A DNA stretch of 38,849 nucleotides from positions 1-38,849 of the forward strand of contig JAPUIP010000901.1 in assembly GCA_027296925.1 (NCBI GenBank), written 5' to 3'. A model generated the notes under the pieces. It did not search any database. It saw only the letters and a list, made by a program, of their open reading frames with translations, and was not told the DNA's origin. The position numbers and the translations under genes were made by a program. This document shows, in pieces, positions 9,392-18,912 of the stretch. This DNA is from Candidatus Poribacteria bacterium. Its GTDB lineage: Bacteria; Poribacteria; WGA-4E; PCPOR2b. Positions within the stretch are counted from its first letter, which is position 1. Each line of letters begins with the position of its first letter.

Positions 9392-10145
9392 TCTCGACTT
9401 GCCGGAACAACTACGATTGTTGTATGAGTTTCAACAGATTGACATGGAAATCCTGGCGTTGCATCACAAACTGAAGTCCGTTCCACTCAAGATCAAAAAG
9501 TTAGAGAAAGGCTTTCAAATTCATCAACAAAAATTACAGGCAAAGCAAGAGGAACTGGGGGACGCGGAGAAAGAGCAGCGATCCAAAACGGCTCAGCTTG
9601 ACATGCATCAAGAACAGCGCCTGAAGTTCCAGGCACAGTTGCGCGAGGTGAAAACCAATAGAGAATATCAGGCACTCGATAAAGAGATCAGTTTCCTCGA
9701 TGCAAAAGATGCAGAAATAGAAGACGAGATTTTAGCTGTGATGTTGCAGATTGATCAACTCACAGAGGAACTCGATCGTCAACAGGAGGAGCTTGAGGCA
9801 GAGCAAACGAAGAAAAACCAGCAAGAAGCCTTATACCGGCAGGAAACTGAAAATCTCCAAGCACAGATTGTGGCATGGCAAGAAAAACGTCGGGGATTAT
9901 TTCATAGAATCGATCAAGGCTTGATGGTGCAGTATCTAGAGGGGTTCAAACGCAAACGTACGGGAATTATTTCTCTGGTCACCAGCAATATATGTAACAA
10001 TTGTCATCTCACCATTCCGCCTCAAACGTTGAAGGAAGCGCGTAAATATGAGCAATTCATCCGTTGTGGAAGCTGTAAACACATTCTTTACATCCCGCCT
10101 CCCGTTCCTGACGATGTCTCTTCGGCGGACGCCACCTCTGATTAA
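9384..10145 (+). CDS. Coiled-coil protein with C-terminal C4 zinc ribbon (COG1579 / zf-RING_7-like)
   Basis: About 190 aa of heptad-rich coiled coil are followed by CNNC-x20-CGSC. It overlaps the tatC stop by 8 nt. Confidence 0.72.
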   Translation: MPNLDLPEQLRLLYEFQQIDMEILALHHKLKSVPLKIKKLEKGFQIHQQKLQAKQEELGDAEKEQRSKTAQLDMHQEQRLKFQAQLREVKTNREYQALDKEISFLDAKDAEIEDEILAVMLQIDQLTEELDRQQEELEAEQTKKNQQEALYRQETENLQAQIVAWQEKRRGLFHRIDQGLMVQYLEGFKRKRTGIISLVTSNICNNCHLTIPPQTLKEARKYEQFIRCGSCKHILYIPPPVPDDVSSADATSD

Positions 10146-10443
10146 ATCCCGCCTTCAATCTCTACCATCGGTAATCCCAAAATCCTTTTGACCTACCTTT
10201 CGCTAACACGATATTTAGCCCCGCATTTAATTCCAGATCGATGACCTTCTATTACTTCCTCCGCCAGGCACCTCATGAAACCGACTCGAACCTCTTGCGT
10301 TTATCCCGGTATGTGAGGGCCAGTACCGGAATTGTATTGCGTCACTCAGCCTCTGTTCTGAGAGAAATGCTATGCCGCGAACCCGCTAATAGGAGTCCCC
10401 TCACATTTTGGCGTGCAAAACCTGTTTGGCTTGGAGGGAATTG

Positions 10444-11301
10444 ATGTCCGTAAAAAAGCAGAAACTGCTGCTTACTATAATAGTGATGCCGCTCCTATGT
10501 CTATTCAGTGTCGGATTATCAGCCGACGCGCCTGAGCTCGTGCAAGAGGGGCCTGAGATAGAGTCACCATTTCGGCTGAAAACTATCGTGCTCGATGCCG
10601 GACACGGCGGCAGAGACCCCGGCAAAGTGAGTCCGTGGCGTGTAGAGGAAAAGGATATTAACCTCGCGATCGTGTTTAAACTCTCGGCATTAATTCATGA
10701 GAAAACAGAATATGAAGTCTATCTCACCCGATCGACGGATCGCTGGGTTTCATTGGCAGACCGTGCGCGGCTTGCCAATCGGTTTCCGGCAGATCAGACG
10801 CTTTTTATCAGCATCCACTGCAACGCTCATACAGATCGAAGTGTCCACGGATTGGAAAGTTATATTTTCAATCTGAAAGCCACCGATAAACTCGCTGCCC
10901 GGTTAGCCCGCTGGGAAAACGCCGAAGAAATCGCGAATCCCATCGATTTTATTGTCAACAACCTGTATCAAAGAGGTAGCGAAAAATATAGTTGGGCGGC
11001 TGCACGGATTGTGCAATCTGTGCTTGTCTCCGACCTCAAAATCCGAAATCGGAATCAGAATGCGCCCGACAAATTGGTGAGACGTGCCCCTTTTCGCGTC
11101 CTTGTTGATACAAAAATGCCAGCCCTTCTGATCGAGTTGGGATATTTGTCCAACAGAGCGGAACATGAGAAACTCAACTCAGCTGCCTACCAGGACAAGG
11201 TCGCGAAGGCGCTGCTGACATCAATTCAACAGTTCGATCAGTCGATACGCGAAGCTCCGAAGAATGGCAATATGGCGGGTTTGCCTTCACTCGATCGCTG
11301 A
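10444..11301 (+). CDS. N-acetylmuramoyl-L-alanine amidase (Amidase_3, AmiA/B/C type), secreted
   Basis: Signal-peptide-like N-terminus plus LDAGHGGRDPG, ISIHCNA and ALLIELGYLSN motifs. ATG 10444 has SD GGAGGG 5 nt upstream. The ORF-track start 10408 looks like an over-extension. Confidence 0.85.
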   Translation: MSVKKQKLLLTIIVMPLLCLFSVGLSADAPELVQEGPEIESPFRLKTIVLDAGHGGRDPGKVSPWRVEEKDINLAIVFKLSALIHEKTEYEVYLTRSTDRWVSLADRARLANRFPADQTLFISIHCNAHTDRSVHGLESYIFNLKATDKLAARLARWENAEEIANPIDFIVNNLYQRGSEKYSWAAARIVQSVLVSDLKIRNRNQNAPDKLVRRAPFRVLVDTKMPALLIELGYLSNRAEHEKLNSAAYQDKVAKALLTSIQQFDQSIREAPKNGNMAGLPSLDR

Positions 11302-11340
11302 GATTTTATCAGGGGCTGTCTTGTCGTGTTTTTGTAACCG

Positions 11341-12102
11341 ATGATCCGTTATCACGTTGTTGATGCATTTGAGAAGACCGGATTGGTTCAAGCGGTGACA
11401 AGTATTCGCCGAGGTGGCGTGAGTCGCGCGCCTTACCATTCGTTGAACCTTGGTGCGCATGTTGACGATGATTCGGCAGCGGTGAGCGTCAACCGGCAGA
11501 TTTTCTTTCGTCAGATTGGGCTGGATGCACGGCATTTCGTGCACTGCCGCCAAATTCACAGCAACCGCGTGTGGTTCATCGATCCAGCCGCCCCCCTTTT
11601 GCAAGCCTCCCCCGTCGAAGCGGACGCAATAATAACGGCTCATCCCTCCCTCGCACCGGGTGTATTTACCGCGGATTGTGTGCCGATCTTCATTTTGGAT
11701 GCGGCAACCCCCGCAATCGGCATGGTCCATGCCGGCTGGCGTGGCACGTTGACAGAGATCGCCGCGCAGACCATCCGCGCGATGCGAGAACACTTCGGCA
11801 CCGCTCCCTCAGCATGTTTGGCTCATCTCGGTCCCTCAATCCAAAAGTGCTGCTACACGGTGAGCATATCCCTCGCAGACCAATTTGAACAGGCTTTTGG
11901 GCCACGTGTGCGGAGCGACGAATGCACACTTGACCTCCAAACGGCAAACGCAAACCAACTCCTTCAGGCAGGCGTGCCGCCCGATGCGATCTCTGTTTCG
12001 CCATTTTGCACCGCTTGCCGAACCGATCTTTTCTATTCTCATCGAGCAGAGGGCGGACGGACGGGACGGATGCTTTCCTTAATCAGGCTGCATGGAGACT
12101 AG
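11341..12102 (+). CDS. pgeF: YfiH/PgeF family (DUF152, laccase-domain) peptidoglycan-editing / purine nucleoside phosphorylase-type protein
   Basis: Motifs QIHSNRV, EADAIIT, FTADCVPIF, VHAGWRG, CCY, SHR in the characteristic order. Confidence 0.85.
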   Translation: MIRYHVVDAFEKTGLVQAVTSIRRGGVSRAPYHSLNLGAHVDDDSAAVSVNRQIFFRQIGLDARHFVHCRQIHSNRVWFIDPAAPLLQASPVEADAIITAHPSLAPGVFTADCVPIFILDAATPAIGMVHAGWRGTLTEIAAQTIRAMREHFGTAPSACLAHLGPSIQKCCYTVSISLADQFEQAFGPRVRSDECTLDLQTANANQLLQAGVPPDAISVSPFCTACRTDLFYSHRAEGGRTGRMLSLIRLHGD

Positions 12103-12193
12103 GTTTGCTCTTGCAATCGCTTCTCGAAATGTGCTATCATTTAACCGTTTCGTAGACTTCTGCTGACCTGCTATTGCAAAAGGAGAAGGGCAA

Positions 12194-12883
12194 GTGGCTT
12201 CCATTCAGGAAAACCTCTCACGGCTTCAAGATCGAATCGCTAAAGCCGCCGAACGCTCCGGACACGATCCGCATTCAATATGCCTCGTCGCCGTTTCTAA
12301 AACCAAGCCTGCCAGCCTTATTTTGGAAGCGATTGATGCAGGCGTCACAGACATCGGTGAAAACCGCGTTCAGGAGGCGCAGAGCAAGTGGAATCAGATT
12401 GACCGCTCGGTGAGGTGGCATCTCGTCGGGCATTTGCAGCGAAATAAAGTAAAACAAGCATTAGCGATTTTTGACCTCATCCATTCCGTTGATAGCTTGC
12501 GACTCCTTGCCGAGATTGATCGCCGGTCCGCGCAATTGAACCGGCGGACAGATGTATTGATTCAGGTCAACACCTCGGGCGAACCAAGTAAGCACGGTAT
12601 CGAACCGGATCAGACGCTTGACCTGATTGAAAGTGGGCTCGAATACGAGCATGTCCGAATCAACGGCCTCATGACGATCGGTGCGTTTCTGCCCGATCCG
12701 GAAGCTGTTCGTCCATCATTCGTATTGTTGCAGCAACTCCGGGAAAAAATTGTCGGTCAGCAGTTTCCGGAAGTTGACATGGAATACCTGTCGATGGGAA
12801 TGACGAATGATTTTGAGGTTGCGATTGAAGAAGGAGCAAATCTCGTTCGAGTTGGGACGGCAATCTTTGGGGCGCGAGAGTAA
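12194..12883 (+). CDS. yggS: PLP-homeostasis protein YggS/YlmE (PLPBP family)
   Basis: VAVSKTKP (PLP lysine), HLVGHLQRNK, HSVDS, LSMGMTNDFEVAIEEGANLVRVGTAIFG. GTG start with SD AAAGGAG upstream. Confidence 0.9.
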   Translation: MASIQENLSRLQDRIAKAAERSGHDPHSICLVAVSKTKPASLILEAIDAGVTDIGENRVQEAQSKWNQIDRSVRWHLVGHLQRNKVKQALAIFDLIHSVDSLRLLAEIDRRSAQLNRRTDVLIQVNTSGEPSKHGIEPDQTLDLIESGLEYEHVRINGLMTIGAFLPDPEAVRPSFVLLQQLREKIVGQQFPEVDMEYLSMGMTNDFEVAIEEGANLVRVGTAIFGARE

Positions 12884-13783: not shown

Positions 13784-14056
13784 ATGACTGGAATACTTGG
13801 CCCAATATTGAGCGAAGCGATTCGCCTCTATACATTCGTTGTGCTTGTTAATGTAATACTATCCTGGTTTGTGCACAGTTCCAAGAATATGACAGTGCGG
13901 AAAATCTATGGGATGACCGGTCAGTTCGTCGATCCGGTTTTGGATCCAATTCGCCGCGTCCTCAGTCCGATGACGCGAGGCTTCGGCATCGATATTTCAC
14001 CCATCGTTTTAATTGTGTTTTTGCAAGTGCTTCAAAAGATGGTGATCGCCCTCTGA
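13784..14056 (+). CDS. yggT: YggT/YlmG family small membrane protein
   Basis: 90 aa with two hydrophobic helices and the YggT-like pattern (...LSWF...DPVLDPIRRVL...ISPIVL...). It sits at the conserved position after proC/yggS. Confidence 0.8.
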   Translation: MTGILGPILSEAIRLYTFVVLVNVILSWFVHSSKNMTVRKIYGMTGQFVDPVLDPIRRVLSPMTRGFGIDISPIVLIVFLQVLQKMVIAL

Positions 14057-14143: not shown

Positions 14144-14668
14144 ATGAAAATCACAGCCGTGGATATTCATAGTCAAGGGTTCAGAAAGCGATTTCGCGGA
14201 TACGATCGAGATGAAGTTGAAAGCTTCCTTGAGGCGATCGCCAAAAGTTTTGAGGAACTGACCAGAGAAAATCACGAGCTTTCTGAACAGATCCAACGCC
14301 TCGAAGATCAGGTTGAAGAACATCGACGCAAGGAGCAGAGCATCTACGAAGCGCTGTTGCAAGCACATCAGTACGGCGAGGAAGCCAAAGGCACCGCTGA
14401 GCGTGAGAGTGAGCTTATCTTGCGAGAAGCCAAATTTGAAGCGGACAACATTATTCGACAGGCGGAAGATAAAGCGGATGGGATTCGCCAAGAGATTATG
14501 ATCTTACAGCATGAGAAGGAACGGTTTATCACTGAATACCGGGCGTTGCTTCATGTACAATTGAAGATGCTAGCGAAAAAGGAACAGCAGACCGCAATTC
14601 AGTACGGCAACACGGAAGTTGCAAAAGGTTTGAATGAGATTACCATTCTGGAAAGTTCTAACGGCTAG
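14144..14668 (+). CDS. divIVA: DivIVA-domain protein
   Basis: N-terminal ITAVDIHSQGFRKRFRGYDRDEVESFLEAI is the DivIVA lipid-binding domain signature, followed by a coiled coil. Confidence 0.85.
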   Translation: MKITAVDIHSQGFRKRFRGYDRDEVESFLEAIAKSFEELTRENHELSEQIQRLEDQVEEHRRKEQSIYEALLQAHQYGEEAKGTAERESELILREAKFEADNIIRQAEDKADGIRQEIMILQHEKERFITEYRALLHVQLKMLAKKEQQTAIQYGNTEVAKGLNEITILESSNG

Positions 14669-14839: not shown

Positions 14840-17287
14840 ATGGATAGAGTAACCGCCTTGTCTGGACGCACTTTCTCAGCACTTCACCCGCTCACTGAGG
14901 ATAGGATTGCGGAATGCTGGCAGGAAATCGACATTTACACACAACTTGCTCAGCGAGCCGCAGCCACACATTATATCCTCCGGGAAATGCCCACTCCCAT
15001 TCATCATTTCCGACTGGATACCCTCAAGTGTAAAATCCATCAAGATGTCTTTCTTAAAGTCAACATGATGCAGGGCAAAGGTGTGGCATACACGCCGTAC
15101 TGGAATTATTATACGCCCGTCGTCGAGCGAAGGGAGTTGCATTCAGAACCGGAAGACAGCACCTTCGATTCGCTGCGATTCCGGCGACAGTGCCGGCGTG
15201 AGTTTCAGCATGGGGTAAAGCACCGGCAGCAGCAACTTGAGGCACTTGGCATTTTTGGAGATTGCGAGGGTATCGGCAAAACTCTGGATACTCGCGATGA
15301 AGTGAAGATTATCAATACCTTCAGTCAATTGTGGGAACGGGGTTACTTGATTAAAGATCGTCAATTGAGCTATTGGTGCCAAAAATGTCAGACGACTTTA
15401 GATGCGGATGAGATTGAAATTCGCCCCGCTGAGGCATATTCAGGGTACGTAAAATTTCCTGTGAGCATTGGTTTGGAGGAGTTCGGTGAGGACGTTTACT
15501 TCCTGGTGTGGCTCCAAGATCTCTGGCACCTCGCTGGAAGTGTTGCAATCGGCTTGAAGGAGGATAGTCAATACTTGATTGCTGAGTTTGGTGGTGAAGT
15601 CCTTATTCTCACTGAAGAAGACCTCTCGAATCGACTTCCTGCCGAACGCCAGAACGATGTAAGCGCATTAGAAACGTGCCGGGCTGATGTTCTGACAACG
15701 TGTACGTGCGCACATCCGTTTTTGGGAATAGATCTCCCGGTAGTCGTCGTTCCTGACCTTTCCCAGCACGACCGCAGCTCAAGCGAAGTAGCGATGTTTC
15801 CGCCGCCAACAGGTGTGCGGCATCTTGCTCCGGGACATCACCCCTACGATTATGAAGCCGCTCAAAAGTTGCAACTGGCGATACCCTCCGTTGTTGATGA
15901 TTTGGGTCGTCTCACGGAGGATTCAGACCAGCTTTGCGGACTTGAAATCTCTCAAGCCGAAAAATTCATTACCTTTGAATTGGAGAAGAGAGGATACCTG
16001 GTTTATACAGGATTCGAGGATGTGCCGCAGCCTCATTGCGGAACGTGCGGCACGCTGGCGTTATTCCGTCCGGTTCAACAGTGGATTTTTTCTTTGGACA
16101 GCAACGACTTGAGGCAGCGCGTGCTACGCTCCGATGACTCTTGGGGCCGTTGTCGCCCCCAAGATCGAGTCCAGATACAACAAACCATCGAAGACCTCTC
16201 GGACATATGTGTTTCACGCCATCGGGGTTGGAGCATTCCGATCCCTCTGCTCCAGTGTGATAGGTGTGGGTATCAACTCTCTGATGACCGTATTCTCAAA
16301 GCGACCCGCGATCTGATTTCGCGTCGTGGCACGGAGGTTTGGTTTAAGCTGAATGCTGAATACCTGTTACCGCCGAAGACCCTGTGTCCCAACTGTGAGG
16401 GGAAAGAGTTTCGGAAAGAATCCACGCTCCTGGATGGGCGTTTTGCTGTCCTTCTCAATGCAGTGAATAGATCCAAAGTTAAGAAAAAGAGTCTCGGCCC
16501 TGTCGATGTTTATTTCTTTGCCCCCAATGAATTTGACAAATGGTTTGCCCAGTTTGTCTTAACTTTGGTTGCCCTCCATGATGCTGTTCCCTCGAATATC
16601 GATTTGACAGCCGTTGGTTCGCATGTGCCGTCAATCGAAATAAACGAAAACTGGATTGATGAATACCCAAAGGACGTGCTTCGGCTACTGTGTGTCCAGC
16701 CAGATTCTGAGTCGCTGTCGATAGATAACCGGTTGCAAGCGTGTCAGAATGAATATCACATCGTTCAAACAATATGCGCTGAAATACTAAGTTGCCTCGA
16801 AGACTTTAGCTCAGAGGCACATCAACTCGCTCTGGAAACCTTACTTCCATTGGATGCACTGGCGCTATCGATGACAAACCGGGTTCTGCAAGCCGTAGAT
16901 TTTGCTTATCAGCAACGTGATTTTCATCACGCATGGTGTGTTCTCAAAGATTTTTGCCAATCTGATCTTCAACGATTTTATCTGCCGGTATTGAAGGATC
17001 GGCTCAACGTTCCAGAAACAACACGAGAAAAGCGTTCTGGTCAGACAGCATTGTGGAACATCTTGCATGTGTTAATACAAAGGTTGGCGCCCATTACACC
17101 TTTTCTATCCGAGCAGATTCACGCATTAATCCAGACGAAAAGTACGGTTTTCCCGTCTGCGGATGGAGTTGAAAATGAGAATGGTCCGGCGTTTTCAAGT
17201 GTTTTTTTGAAGGATTGGCGTACCCGGATTGACATACCGTATATTGCGGATGCAGACGCTCGCTGGAGAGAATTATCGGGTGTATAA
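14840..17287 (+). CDS. Isoleucyl-tRNA synthetase homologue (type-1 architecture) with degenerate HIGH, KMSKS and editing motifs; probable non-catalytic paralogue
   Basis: It is colinear with IleRS from the N-terminus (CWQEIDIY ~ W.E.DLY).
- Conserved: CP1 and zinc-knuckle segments (YWCQKCQTTL, HCGTCGTLALFRPVQQWIFSL, QCDRCG, LCPNCEG...LLD) and the anticodon-binding domain (FYLPVLKDR, KRSGQTALWNILHVLIQRLAPITPFLSEQI).
- HDGPPYANGxIHIGH is replaced by REMPTPIHHFRLD.
- WDCHGLPIE is replaced by WNYYTPVVE.
- EGSDQHRGWF is replaced by FAPNEFDKWF.
- The KMSKS loop is replaced and shortened (GSHVPSIEINENWIDEYPKDVLRLL).
- WTTTPWTLPAN is replaced by WLQDLWHLAGS.
- At 815 aa it lacks the C-terminal Zn-finger domain. 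Confidence 0.75.
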   Translation: MDRVTALSGRTFSALHPLTEDRIAECWQEIDIYTQLAQRAAATHYILREMPTPIHHFRLDTLKCKIHQDVFLKVNMMQGKGVAYTPYWNYYTPVVERRELHSEPEDSTFDSLRFRRQCRREFQHGVKHRQQQLEALGIFGDCEGIGKTLDTRDEVKIINTFSQLWERGYLIKDRQLSYWCQKCQTTLDADEIEIRPAEAYSGYVKFPVSIGLEEFGEDVYFLVWLQDLWHLAGSVAIGLKEDSQYLIAEFGGEVLILTEEDLSNRLPAERQNDVSALETCRADVLTTCTCAHPFLGIDLPVVVVPDLSQHDRSSSEVAMFPPPTGVRHLAPGHHPYDYEAAQKLQLAIPSVVDDLGRLTEDSDQLCGLEISQAEKFITFELEKRGYLVYTGFEDVPQPHCGTCGTLALFRPVQQWIFSLDSNDLRQRVLRSDDSWGRCRPQDRVQIQQTIEDLSDICVSRHRGWSIPIPLLQCDRCGYQLSDDRILKATRDLISRRGTEVWFKLNAEYLLPPKTLCPNCEGKEFRKESTLLDGRFAVLLNAVNRSKVKKKSLGPVDVYFFAPNEFDKWFAQFVLTLVALHDAVPSNIDLTAVGSHVPSIEINENWIDEYPKDVLRLLCVQPDSESLSIDNRLQACQNEYHIVQTICAEILSCLEDFSSEAHQLALETLLPLDALALSMTNRVLQAVDFAYQQRDFHHAWCVLKDFCQSDLQRFYLPVLKDRLNVPETTREKRSGQTALWNILHVLIQRLAPITPFLSEQIHALIQTKSTVFPSADGVENENGPAFSSVFLKDWRTRIDIPYIADADARWRELSGV

Positions 17288-17380: not shown

Positions 17381-17881
17381 ATGCAGCAAAGCGCTCTCAA
17401 ATCCCTTCCGCTTCTATTCGGTGTTACTTTGCCGGTACTGCTTATAGACCAGCTCACGAAGTGGCTAATCCAACAACACATTCCACCTCATCGTCAACAT
17501 GTCATCATTGAAGGTATATTCAACCTTCGCCACGATACGAATGATGGCGCCGCCTTTGGATTAATGCCCGGACAAAACTTACCGCTCATCATTATTTCAA
17601 TCGCCGCTATTGGGTTTATTCTTTTTTATTACAGGCATTTTTATGAAAGCCTGTGGATGAAGGTTGCGCTCGGCTTTCTACTGGGTGGTGCGCTTGGCAA
17701 CTTTATCGACCGAATGCGCCTGGGTGAGGTCACGGATTTCCTCCAGTTTCGGCTGCCCGGCTTCTGGTGGCCCACCTTTAACGTCGCCGACGTCGCTGTT
17801 TGTATCGGCGCCGGAATGCTGATGCTTCACATGTTCCGTCATCGAGGAGATTACGATGCTGCGAAACAGATTGAAAACTAG
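17381..17881 (+). CDS. lspA: Lipoprotein signal peptidase (signal peptidase II)
   Basis: LIDQLTKW, NDGAAFG, GGALGNFIDR, VTDFL and FNVADVAICIG-like motifs with four hydrophobic segments. Confidence 0.9.
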   Translation: MQQSALKSLPLLFGVTLPVLLIDQLTKWLIQQHIPPHRQHVIIEGIFNLRHDTNDGAAFGLMPGQNLPLIIISIAAIGFILFYYRHFYESLWMKVALGFLLGGALGNFIDRMRLGEVTDFLQFRLPGFWWPTFNVADVAVCIGAGMLMLHMFRHRGDYDAAKQIEN

Positions 17882-18338
17882 GTTAGCCGTCTCTCTGATT
17901 TTAATTGCGGCAATGGCTTCGACCAATGTATTTGCACAATATCAACAAGAATCGGAGGAAACGCCGCGCACTCGCCGTCAGCAAGAAGAAGTATACAGTG
18001 AAAGTGCGTTACGGCGGTTTGAGATTGTTACCCTCGTTTCTCTACCGTTTACGGCGATTCACAGCTTTTTGATGATGCGAGGCATTCAGATGATCCGACA
18101 AAATGAGTTTGCGCCCGAACTCACCGGAAAAAACTTCAGAATTATTGGGGCATCTGCGGTATCGCTTGCGCTATTCATCGGTGTTTGGGATTGGCTCCAC
18201 ACGCACGACAAAGACCCCTCCCAACCACTCATGCCCAATTCGACGCCACCACCTCCACCGCAGCGAGTCGAGCTAAATGATTGGGATGTCGACGACTCGG
18301 ACGGTCTTGTCGTTCCACTGGTTCATTTTCGGTTTTGA
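17856..18338 (+). CDS. Hypothetical secreted/membrane protein (signal peptide, two TM helices, Pro-rich acidic tail ending in Phe)
   Basis: 160-aa ORF overlapping the lspA 3' end by 26 nt. Cleavable-looking leader ...AAMASTNVFAQ, hydrophobic helices at about residues 55-75 and 100-118, PPPPPQ and DWDVDDSD near the C-terminus. I recognise no family. Confidence 0.5.
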   Translation: MLRNRLKTRLAVSLILIAAMASTNVFAQYQQESEETPRTRRQQEEVYSESALRRFEIVTLVSLPFTAIHSFLMMRGIQMIRQNEFAPELTGKNFRIIGASAVSLALFIGVWDWLHTHDKDPSQPLMPNSTPPPPPQRVELNDWDVDDSDGLVVPLVHFRF

Positions 18339-18408
18339 TGGCCGGATAGGCTCATGGGCGAATTGCGTATCAATATCACCTGTCACGTACTTCCTTTATT
18401 TAGATTCT

Positions 18409-18912
18409 ATGGCAACTTTAGAGATTCAAACGGGCGATGCCCCTATTTTGCGAGAAACGGCCGTTCCAATTCCAGAGATTGACGCCGATTTACTTCAACT
18501 CATAGCAGATATGTTTGAGACAATGTACGCTGTGCAGGGGATTGGTCTGGCCGCGCCACAGATTGGGGTATCCAAAAGGTTAATCATCATCGACATCGAG
18601 GAACACCATCCCGAGTATCCTCGGATTGCGTTGATAAATCCGGTCATCACAATGGCTGTGGGTGAAGAGCTTGGCGAGGAAGGTTGTTTGAGCTTGCCGG
18701 GCATTCGGGGAATGGTGCAGCGATCCGCAACCGTAAAGGTGGAAGGCCTGTTGCCGAATGGAGACAAAATTGAGTTTGATGCGAGCGGCTTGATGGCGCG
18801 TGTCTTACAGCATGAGAGAGATCATCTCGACGGCGTCCTCTTTACCGATTTGCTTATTCCTGGGGATCAACAGTTGCTTGAACCTCCGCCAGAAATGGCG
18901 ACTGAGATATGA
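18409..18912 (+). CDS. def: Peptide deformylase
   Basis: GIGLAAPQIG, EGCLSLPG and HERDHLDG motifs. ATG 18409 (MATLEIQ...) gives a normal-length protein, so the track start 18277 is an over-extension. Confidence 0.9.
   Translation: MATLEIQTGDAPILRETAVPIPEIDADLLQLIADMFETMYAVQGIGLAAPQIGVSKRLIIIDIEEHHPEYPRIALINPVITMAVGEELGEEGCLSLPGIRGMVQRSATVKVEGLLPNGDKIEFDASGLMARVLQHERDHLDGVLFTDLLIPGDQQLLEPPPEMATEI

Follow-up and report, generated by a model that had tools for sequence, protein, structure and literature searches.

The window analysed here, a stretch of 38,849 nucleotides of contig JAPUIP010000901.1 (assembly GCA_027296925.1) from a member of Candidatus Poribacteria, a sponge-associated phylum, carries an open reading frame (ORF) whose 815-amino-acid product is very probably a selected, non-aminoacylating derivative of type-1 isoleucyl-tRNA synthetase (IleRS1). 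Judged by sequence and gene order, this ORF is the direct descendant, that is, the orthologue, of the ancestral type-1 ileS of Poribacteria, and now encodes a putative pseudo-synthetase (hereafter pseudo-IleRS). By its motifs and model score, the protein falls outside the functional IleRS1 and can be placed among the synthetase-derived pseudoenzymes in general, as it combines a synthetase fold lacking the catalytic signatures with purifying selection across species. No description of a catalytically dead IleRS, or of IleRS in Poribacteria, was found in the literature. IleRS is among the most evolutionarily stable synthetases, with only mupA/mupB discussed in a survey covering over 2500 genomes (PMC5388404), and a review of synthetase duplications covers for IleRS only the type-2 enzyme IleRS2 (active resistance enzymes) and SbzA (PMC9437257). 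A phylum-wide, selected, dead IleRS1 would, if this reading is true, add an IleRS-derived member to the few synthetase pseudoenzymes.

The ORF begins with ATG, is preceded by an in-frame stop 6 nucleotides upstream, and runs uninterrupted through 815 codons. Its product matched the Pfam families tRNA-synt_1 (85.8 bits) and Anticodon_1 (PF08264; 55.1 bits against a cut-off of 25.1), and in a phmmer search of all PDB sequences the best matches were IleRS1 aligned end to end, with residues 17–762 corresponding to residues 21–768 of the Priestia megaterium enzyme (8c9e; E = 3e-64) and the Staphylococcus aureus enzyme (1ffy) likewise matched. The MupA/MupB models matched it weakly (77–95 bits against a cut-off of 1900). 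An AlphaFold2 (AF2) model built on a 59-sequence family alignment had a mean predicted local distance difference test (pLDDT) score of 81.4 and a predicted template modelling score (pTM) of 0.77. All of its best PDB matches in Foldseek were IleRS, type 1 first (8c9f, 8c9e, 8wng and 1qu2), at template modelling (TM) scores of 0.68–0.70, and the matches to 8c9f and 8c9e (0.68–0.69) spanned the Rossmann, CP1 and helical domains. On this predicted model, the IleRS1 fold is retained. The protein resembles the IleRS1 of known structure (8C9E, 1FFY/1QU2 and 8WNF) in a Rossmann domain split by the editing insert CP1, in two Cys4 zinc sites, in the stem-contact fold (SC-fold) and in the anticodon helices, as well as in overall fold (TM 0.69) and in a chromosomal slot upstream of lspA, whereas it differs from them in lacking HIGH, KMSKS and the C-terminal zinc domain, in the replacement of the pocket, editing and stem-contact motifs, and in being more acidic. 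The zinc-knuckle CxxC pairs and the anticodon helices (FYLPVLKDR and KRSGQTALW...SEQI) described as retained in the initial annotation of this DNA are indeed present. The eight zinc-ligand cysteines are invariant in 59 of 59 family members; zinc site 1 is ancestral in most IleRS1, and zinc site 2 occurs in about two-thirds of IleRS1 representatives.

A homologue search over 5.8 billion proteins gathered related proteins in three groups. Group A, that of the window protein, comprises 53 clusters (49–67% identity; 777–852 amino acids), whose source names, where given, read 'class I tRNA ligase family protein [Candidatus Poribacteria bacterium]'. Group B (875–932 amino acids) and group C (918–949 amino acids) share 32–35% and 27–29% identity, respectively, with the window protein, and for one group C protein the source name is 'isoleucine--tRNA ligase [Candidatus Poribacteria bacterium]'. 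The representatives of all three groups share one gene order, proC-yggT-X-lspA-def-fmt-PASTA-rpe-rsmE, where X is the pseudo-IleRS gene, and they are therefore orthologues in one ancestral ileS slot. Together with the Pfam, NCBIfam and PDB matches, this order bears out the earlier proposal of an IleRS1 homologue occupying that slot. When GTDB species were scanned with one genome each, the gene was found in about 24 Poribacteria genomes, 16 of these being complete chromosomes, and the ORF was intact in 27 of 27 Poribacteria loci (780–930 amino acids). On the complete Poribacteria chromosome OZ220744.1 (L028/L030), the gene spans the ends of the circular record and thus appears as two partial matches without being broken.

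The three groups all lack HIGH, KMSKS, WDCHG and GxDQxRGWF. Motif states were read from the phmmer alignment and from MAFFT alignments with 100 and 153 sequences, and these agreed with the initial annotation that HIGH, KMSKS, WDCHGLPIE, EGSDQHRGWF, the editing threonines and GHGxDD are degenerate in the window protein (Table 1). The segment HDGPPYANGxIHxGH of canonical IleRS1 corresponds to REMPTPIH-HFRLD, with H-x-G-H aligned to R58-L59-D60-T61. The shortening of the KMSKS loop, put earlier at about 10 amino acids, resolves into two gaps, and the reported lack of the C-terminal zinc-finger domain is reflected in the absence of a Pfam match to PF06827 and in the end of the protein at residue 815, about 110 amino acids short of IleRS1. 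No alignment recovered an intact HxGH or KMSKS, nor did a regular-expression scan find a displaced copy, the whole ORF being free of H-x-G-H and K-M-S-K-S-like strings; across 68 family members, the same scan gave only two chance matches. In the amino-acid pocket, only W88, E96, W568 and F569 are retained, along with Q564 in most family members. An alignment of 24 canonical IleRS1 has 217 columns with conservation of 90% or more; 77 of these (35%) are kept in group A, and at many replaced positions the new residues are 87–100% conserved in group A (for example R48, E49, M50, K58, D60, Y90, Y91, T92, R534, F559, K567 and Q571), the replacement residues of the former HIGH region being 87–98% conserved. 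Compared with a functional IleRS1, the window protein thus shows full-length homology, the fold and the anticodon-binding helical domain PF08264, and it lacks HIGH, KMSKS, the pocket motifs, the CP1 editing site and PF06827, while its score against TIGR00392, the NCBIfam equivalog model for ileS, is 280.9 bits, below the cut-off of 621.4.

Table 1. Positions in the window of the pseudo-IleRS gene, its retained and replaced elements, and its immediate neighbours
Feature	Residues	Position	Strand	Basis or remark
Pseudo-IleRS ORF, 815 amino acids, derived from type-1 IleRS		14840..17287	+	ORF scan, Pfam, NCBIfam, PDB match, AF2/Foldseek
Former HIGH region, now REMPTPIHHFRLD	48-60	14981..15019	+	Family consensus REMPTATHHLKLD; phmmer, MAFFT
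Amino-acid-pocket motif WDCHGLPIE, now WNYYTPVVE	88-96	15101..15127	+	Alignments
Zinc site 1, first CxxC	C180, C183	15377..15388	+	Pairs with C400/C403
GLEEFGEDVY, clade-specific acidic motif in CP1		15470..15499	+	Absent from canonical IleRS1
Threonine-rich editing motif WTTTPWTLPAN, now WLQDLWHLAGS	224-234	15509..15541	+	Alignments
Editing motif GHGxxD, now GHHPYDY		15833..15853	+	His333 and Asp337 kept; MAFFT
Zinc site 1, second CxxC	C400, C403	16037..16048	+	Invariant
Zinc site 2 with intervening segment	C473, C476 ... C516, C519	16256..16396	+	Invariant cysteines; dN/dS 0.14
EGSDQHRGWF, now FAPNEFDKWF	560-569	16517..16546	+	Alignments
Former KMSKS loop, no Lys-Met-Ser-Lys-Ser		16616..16690	+	Gaps of 6 and 4 amino acids, 10 amino acids shorter, remnant GSHVPS
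Stem-contact motif YRxIRNTxRF, now YHIVQTICAE		16754..16783	+	Alignments
Anticodon-binding helical domain (Anticodon_1)	673-771	16835..17149	+	FYLPVLKDR, KRSGQTALW...SEQI
yggT, conserved upstream operon neighbour		13784..14056	+	Pfam YGGT
divIVA, absent at most orthologous loci		14144..14668	+	Pfam DivIVA
lspA, conserved downstream operon neighbour		17381..17881	+	Pfam Peptidase_A8

The gene is under purifying selection across species and is not decaying. Ratios of nonsynonymous to synonymous substitution rates (dN/dS) were calculated pairwise by the Nei–Gojobori method for 24 group A loci (185 pairs with 0.05 < dS < 1.5), and the median for pseudo-IleRS was 0.19, compared to 0.08–0.15 for eight neighbouring genes at the same loci. 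The ratio was lowest, at 0.13, in the N-terminal Rossmann half, which contains the former HIGH region, followed by the zinc site 2 segment (0.14) and CP1 (0.18); it was 0.24–0.28 in the KMSKS-region and anticodon domains, with 0.24 for the anticodon domain, and 0.52 in the C-terminal tail. Between species, the amino-acid identity of pseudo-IleRS was 55–60% versus 72–82% for lspA, fmt, proC and yggS, which indicates a genuine constraint, though one less strict than on a housekeeping synthetase. The idea in the initial annotation that selection holds the frame open is thereby supported, and the assembly or frameshift artefact that it had raised as a possibility was not borne out, since all 27 loci are intact, including those on long-read complete chromosomes. 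It is hardly credible that the ORF is a functionless relic or an assembly artefact, open by chance or for the sake of lspA translation. The relaxed constraint relative to the neighbours and the tight coupling to lspA, which follows after about 29 nucleotides and overlaps the gene at locus L003, would suit such an origin; however, neither a broken frame nor a dN/dS of about 1, the marks of a pseudogene, was found. Rather, 27 independent assemblies have intact ORFs, dN/dS is well under 1 in every domain, the zinc ligands are invariant, the new motifs are conserved, the AF2 fold is confident, and translational coupling by itself would not preserve the amino-acid sequence.

In a neighbour-joining tree, groups A, B and C formed one clade with group C basal. 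Group C keeps WTNTPWTLPAN, YxxIRNTxRF and the C-terminal CxxC...CxxC domain, whereas groups A and B have lost all three; all four editing threonines are thus gone in groups A and B and present in group C. The His and Asp of GHGxxD are kept in group A but lost in most of group C. The motif remnants vary by member, P0060 having KIRKS and P0064 having SESRD, a divergence predicted by relaxed selection on catalysis. The TIGR00392 scores run parallel to the graded loss, the value being 613.7 bits for P0064 in group C, 276.3 bits for P0025 in group A, near that of the window protein, and 204.3 bits for P0058 in group B. An acidic motif, GLEE(F/L)GEDVY, lies upstream of the former threonine motif, and its residues G211, E213 and G216 are invariant across the three groups. 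The degeneration is thus phylum-wide, monophyletic and graded, not a one-off event. In an exhaustive HMMER profile search of 1.84 billion representatives, about 20 of the best 150 representatives fell in the Poribacteria-type degenerate clade, and these are very diverse, at 28–46% identity to the loci studied here. We propose that the HIGH and KMSKS ATP-binding signatures may have been lost in the stem lineage of the phylum, and that the losses of the editing-site threonines, the stem-contact RNTxR and the C-terminal zinc domain may have followed in the lineage leading to group A. If so, groups C, B and A, in that order, would provide a natural series showing the graded dismantling and reuse of a multi-domain enzyme once it had been replaced.

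Since the window protein is apparently unable to activate isoleucine, we infer that another IleRS must exist and that the charging of isoleucine must fall to this other, unlinked gene in these 5–7 Mb genomes, as the initial annotation had also supposed. To our knowledge, IleRS2/MupA/MupB provide the sole widely documented reason for two IleRS-type genes in one bacterium, and the acquisition of an IleRS2 would be the likely event that freed the IleRS1 of Poribacteria from catalytic constraint. IleRS2, MupA and MupB are active enzymes with signature motifs that are intact or permuted, unlike those of the Poribacteria protein. A tblastn search with IleRS1, IleRS2 and 'type-3' queries found no other IleRS in the window or within 10 kb on either side of the 27 Poribacteria loci, only the central gene being matched. 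The nearest canonical matches of the first protein search were considered as Poribacteria paralogues and rejected because they came from Syntrophales and Acidobacteria, and two type-2 IleRS candidates, P0096 and P0095, were rejected because they lie on non-Poribacteria contigs. The nearest canonical IleRS1 come from Syntrophales, Acidobacteria, Desulfovibrionaceae and Actinomycetes. In the exhaustive profile search, no member of the Poribacteria clade had intact motifs, and no intact-motif orthologue was nearer than those of other phyla at 50–59% identity.

The same findings bear on whether the protein may still be the housekeeping IleRS, the sole one of Poribacteria, with a rebuilt active site acting alone or with a partner. 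The search around the loci revealed no second IleRS, and the gene is universal in the phylum, sits in the ileS slot and is under purifying selection. However, both ATP-binding signatures are gone, the HIGH glycine having become a conserved Asp and the KMSKS loop having been deleted, and the C-terminal domain, which is needed for aminoacylation in Escherichia coli IleRS, is missing. Furthermore, each of the three groups shows a different decay of the motif remnants, as expected from relaxed selection and not from a new catalytic solution, and the between-species identity is well below that of the housekeeping neighbours. A housekeeping role, which would imply a class-I synthetase with a completely rebuilt active site, is thus very improbable.

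The initial annotation suggested binding or sensing of tRNA-Ile as a non-enzymatic role. The protein could accordingly be a non-charging tRNA(Ile)-binding protein that senses, sequesters or chaperones tRNA-Ile or Ile-tRNA-Ile. The anticodon helices that prompted this suggestion are kept: Anticodon_1 scores above its cut-off, and the window protein has both FYLPVLKDR and the RSxQT...APIxPF helix. In basal group C, RNTxR, the C-terminal zinc domain and the threonine motif are all kept and the anticodon domain has a charge of +3.7, such that tRNA binding by early members of the clade is plausible. For group A, however, the suggestion is weakened by the loss of RNTxR and of the C-terminal, anticodon-contacting domain, both of which are gone in group B as well, and by acidity. 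KDRxY is also lost in most group A members, though not in the window protein. The median isoelectric point is 4.8 in group A versus 6.2 in canonical IleRS1, and the net charge is −22 versus −8 for CP1 and −7.7 versus −1.2 for the SC-fold. In addition, constraint on the anticodon domain is weaker than on much of the protein, its dN/dS being 0.24 compared to 0.13 for the Rossmann half. Overall, tRNA(Ile) binding seems unlikely to be the present role of the protein, though it has some chance of being so.

Among the possible mechanisms we favour, tentatively, at less than even odds and by analogy with HisZ, that the protein may be a non-catalytic binding or regulatory module built from IleRS1. The remodelled pocket would have no ATP site and would keep four positions of the former isoleucine site (P51, D/N89, Q/E564 and W568); this rebuilt pocket and the acidic CP1 with its GLEEFGEDVY motif would bind a small ligand, a protein partner, or both. 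HisZ is a dead paralogue of HisRS that serves as the regulatory subunit of the ATP-phosphoribosyltransferase HisG. It is of class II, arose as a duplicated paralogue and has HisG as its partner, whereas the Poribacteria protein, of class I, is the original orthologue and has stayed in its ancestral slot. Like HisZ, which offers the closest functional parallel to a ligand-sensing or regulatory pseudo-synthetase, the Poribacteria protein would be a folded synthetase homologue that is under selection without aminoacylating (PMC9437257). If this reading is true, it would be the first IleRS-derived pseudoenzyme of the HisZ-like regulator type. Class-I copies that are kept after their charging activity was lost or crippled include LeuRS-I of Sulfolobaceae and the pseudo-dimer of trypanosomatid TyrRS (PMC9437257). 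LeuRS-I forms leucyl-adenylate and has an intact ATP site, whereas the Poribacteria protein lacks the ATP-binding motifs; in trypanosomatid TyrRS, the duplication is internal to a single polypeptide, unlike in the Poribacteria protein.

A new enzymatic activity on the IleRS scaffold, such as that of an SbzA-like aminoacyl-tRNA transferase, a trans-acting deacylase or another activity of the Rossmann or CP1 pocket, would also account for strongly conserved new residues at former active-site positions, where dN/dS is lowest, and for the Asp and His of GHGxxD kept in group A. There is a precedent in SbzA, an Ile-tRNA-dependent aminoacyl transferase of Streptomyces, which is an IleRS homologue in a non-translational role and moves Ile from Ile-tRNA to altemicidin (PMC6331615). 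However, SbzA is nearer to the Thermus (type-2-like) IleRS, has near-canonical HIGH and KMSKS, charges tRNA weakly and is encoded in a biosynthetic cluster (PMC6331615). The Poribacteria gene has neither such motifs nor such a cluster, its neighbours being yggT, divIVA, lspA, def and fmt, and no biosynthetic genes were found near it in the window or at the inspected loci of groups A, B and C. Moreover, the tRNA-contact elements are lost, and no set of editing-site residues is conserved clade-wide, the threonines being lost in group A and the His and Asp in most of group C. We thus consider a new enzyme improbable. A role as a trans-editing factor was rejected because the clade as a whole does not conserve a complete editing site. 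Mupirocin-type inhibitors bind the HIGH/KMSKS pocket, and a decoy for such inhibitors was considered unlikely because this pocket is gone.

Several points weigh against the interpretation as a selected pseudo-synthetase and a non-catalytic, HisZ-like binding module. The gene context points to no partner or ligand, the neighbours being those of the ancestral ileS. Most neighbours have a dN/dS about half as high, and constraint is thus relaxed relative to a housekeeping enzyme. The old amino-acid pocket is kept only in part, W518 having become R534, and Glu, Gly and Asp having become Phe, Tyr and Asn, respectively. The anticodon domain of the window protein is near-neutral (net charge +1) and its FYLPVLKDR is kept, and some RNA binding is therefore possible. 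The neighbour-joining tree is simple and its branches are long, such that long-branch effects are possible. Finally, the term 'non-catalytic' follows from motif logic and from the universal need for an IleRS, and the search for a second gene extended over 10 kb on either side of the loci; the absence of catalysis is thus predicted from sequence.

Degenerate IleRS1 also occur beyond Poribacteria. Among the best 150 representatives of the exhaustive search, at least 12 IleRS1-like representatives outside the Poribacteria clade lack HIGH and/or KMSKS (P0171, P0187, P0229, P0179, P0188, P0193, P0206, P0213, P0247, P0270, P0292 and P0295), and these mostly keep the C-terminal zinc finger. Named sources of degenerate proteins include Armatimonadota (P0187 and P0229), a metagenome-assembled genome of Bacillota (P0171) and Candidatus Wallbacteria (P0268). 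C-terminal fusions to a Glu/Leu/Phe/Val dehydrogenase were found in three clusters, namely P0183, P0269 and P0268 with its cluster-mate P0306; these fusion proteins have 1266–1469 amino acids, with PF02812 in four of four and PF00208 in three of four. P0183 and P0269 keep WDCHGLPIE and EGxDQHRGWF, with HIGH replaced by HVGI and KMSKS by RMARA or TMSKL. To judge from these motifs, IleRS1 catalysis seems to have been lost several times, and dead or dying IleRS1 seem to be recurrent and undescribed. The fusions possibly link dead IleRS modules to branched-chain amino-acid metabolism in the manner of a 'Rosetta stone', and they hint, indirectly and weakly, at amino-acid sensing for some degenerate IleRS1. 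If the pseudoenzyme reading is true, the Poribacteria protein would belong to a larger, undescribed assemblage of dead IleRS1, among them these dehydrogenase fusions.

Such proteins also affect annotation. P0064 of group C (L002, 6001–8787) has neither HIGH nor KMSKS, yet it bears the NCBI name isoleucine--tRNA ligase and scores 613.7 bits against the TIGR00392 cut-off of 621.4. P0187 of Armatimonadota lacks KMSKS yet exceeds that cut-off with 724.9 bits. The Joint Genome Institute (JGI) name for all three Poribacteria groups is isoleucyl-tRNA synthetase. TIGR00392 is a commonly used marker gene. Given such names, and given that P0187 passes the cut-off, a dead gene can be scored as ileS by pipelines for marker genes or metabolic completeness.

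As regards type-2-like IleRS genes, a histidine-phosphatase gene (PF00300) on contig L086 (Logan DRR433233), which we take to be CPR-like (candidate phyla radiation) in gene content, overlaps the start of a type-2-like ileS (9426–12742) by 4 nucleotides. In P0099 (1128 amino acids), the PF00300 and type-2-like IleRS domains are fused in one protein.

The initial annotation placed the gene in a divIVA-ileS-lspA order and gave coordinates that proved right within a few bases. Adjacency to lspA holds throughout, the distance from the pseudo-IleRS stop to lspA being about 29–94 nucleotides in most loci. However, divIVA is not part of the conserved order, as it lies between yggT and the pseudo-IleRS gene only in the window and at locus L002, and the Poribacteria order is yggS-proC-yggT-X-lspA. 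From the end of yggT to the pseudo-IleRS start, the distance is 35–107 nucleotides in most Poribacteria. At locus L001, a DDE transposase gene stands in place of divIVA. No T-box or other RNA leader was found with Rfam, either in the whole window at the gathering threshold or in the upstream region at E-values up to 1. There were no tRNA genes in the window and no PADLOC match to a defence system in it, and a promoter and terminator scan gave nothing above shuffled expectation.

Downstream of lspA, an ORF of 160 amino acids (17856–18338, + strand) overlaps lspA by 26 nucleotides and was matched by neither Pfam nor PADLOC. Conserved at 43–66% identity in 26 Poribacteria loci, it is a phylum-specific member of the operon. 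The peptide deformylase ORF as listed (18277–18912, + strand) has an N-terminal extension of about 40 amino acids that overlaps this preceding ORF. Orthologues in most inspected loci do not share the extension, their alignments beginning at query residues 13–45, and the true start of the deformylase gene is probably downstream of 18277.

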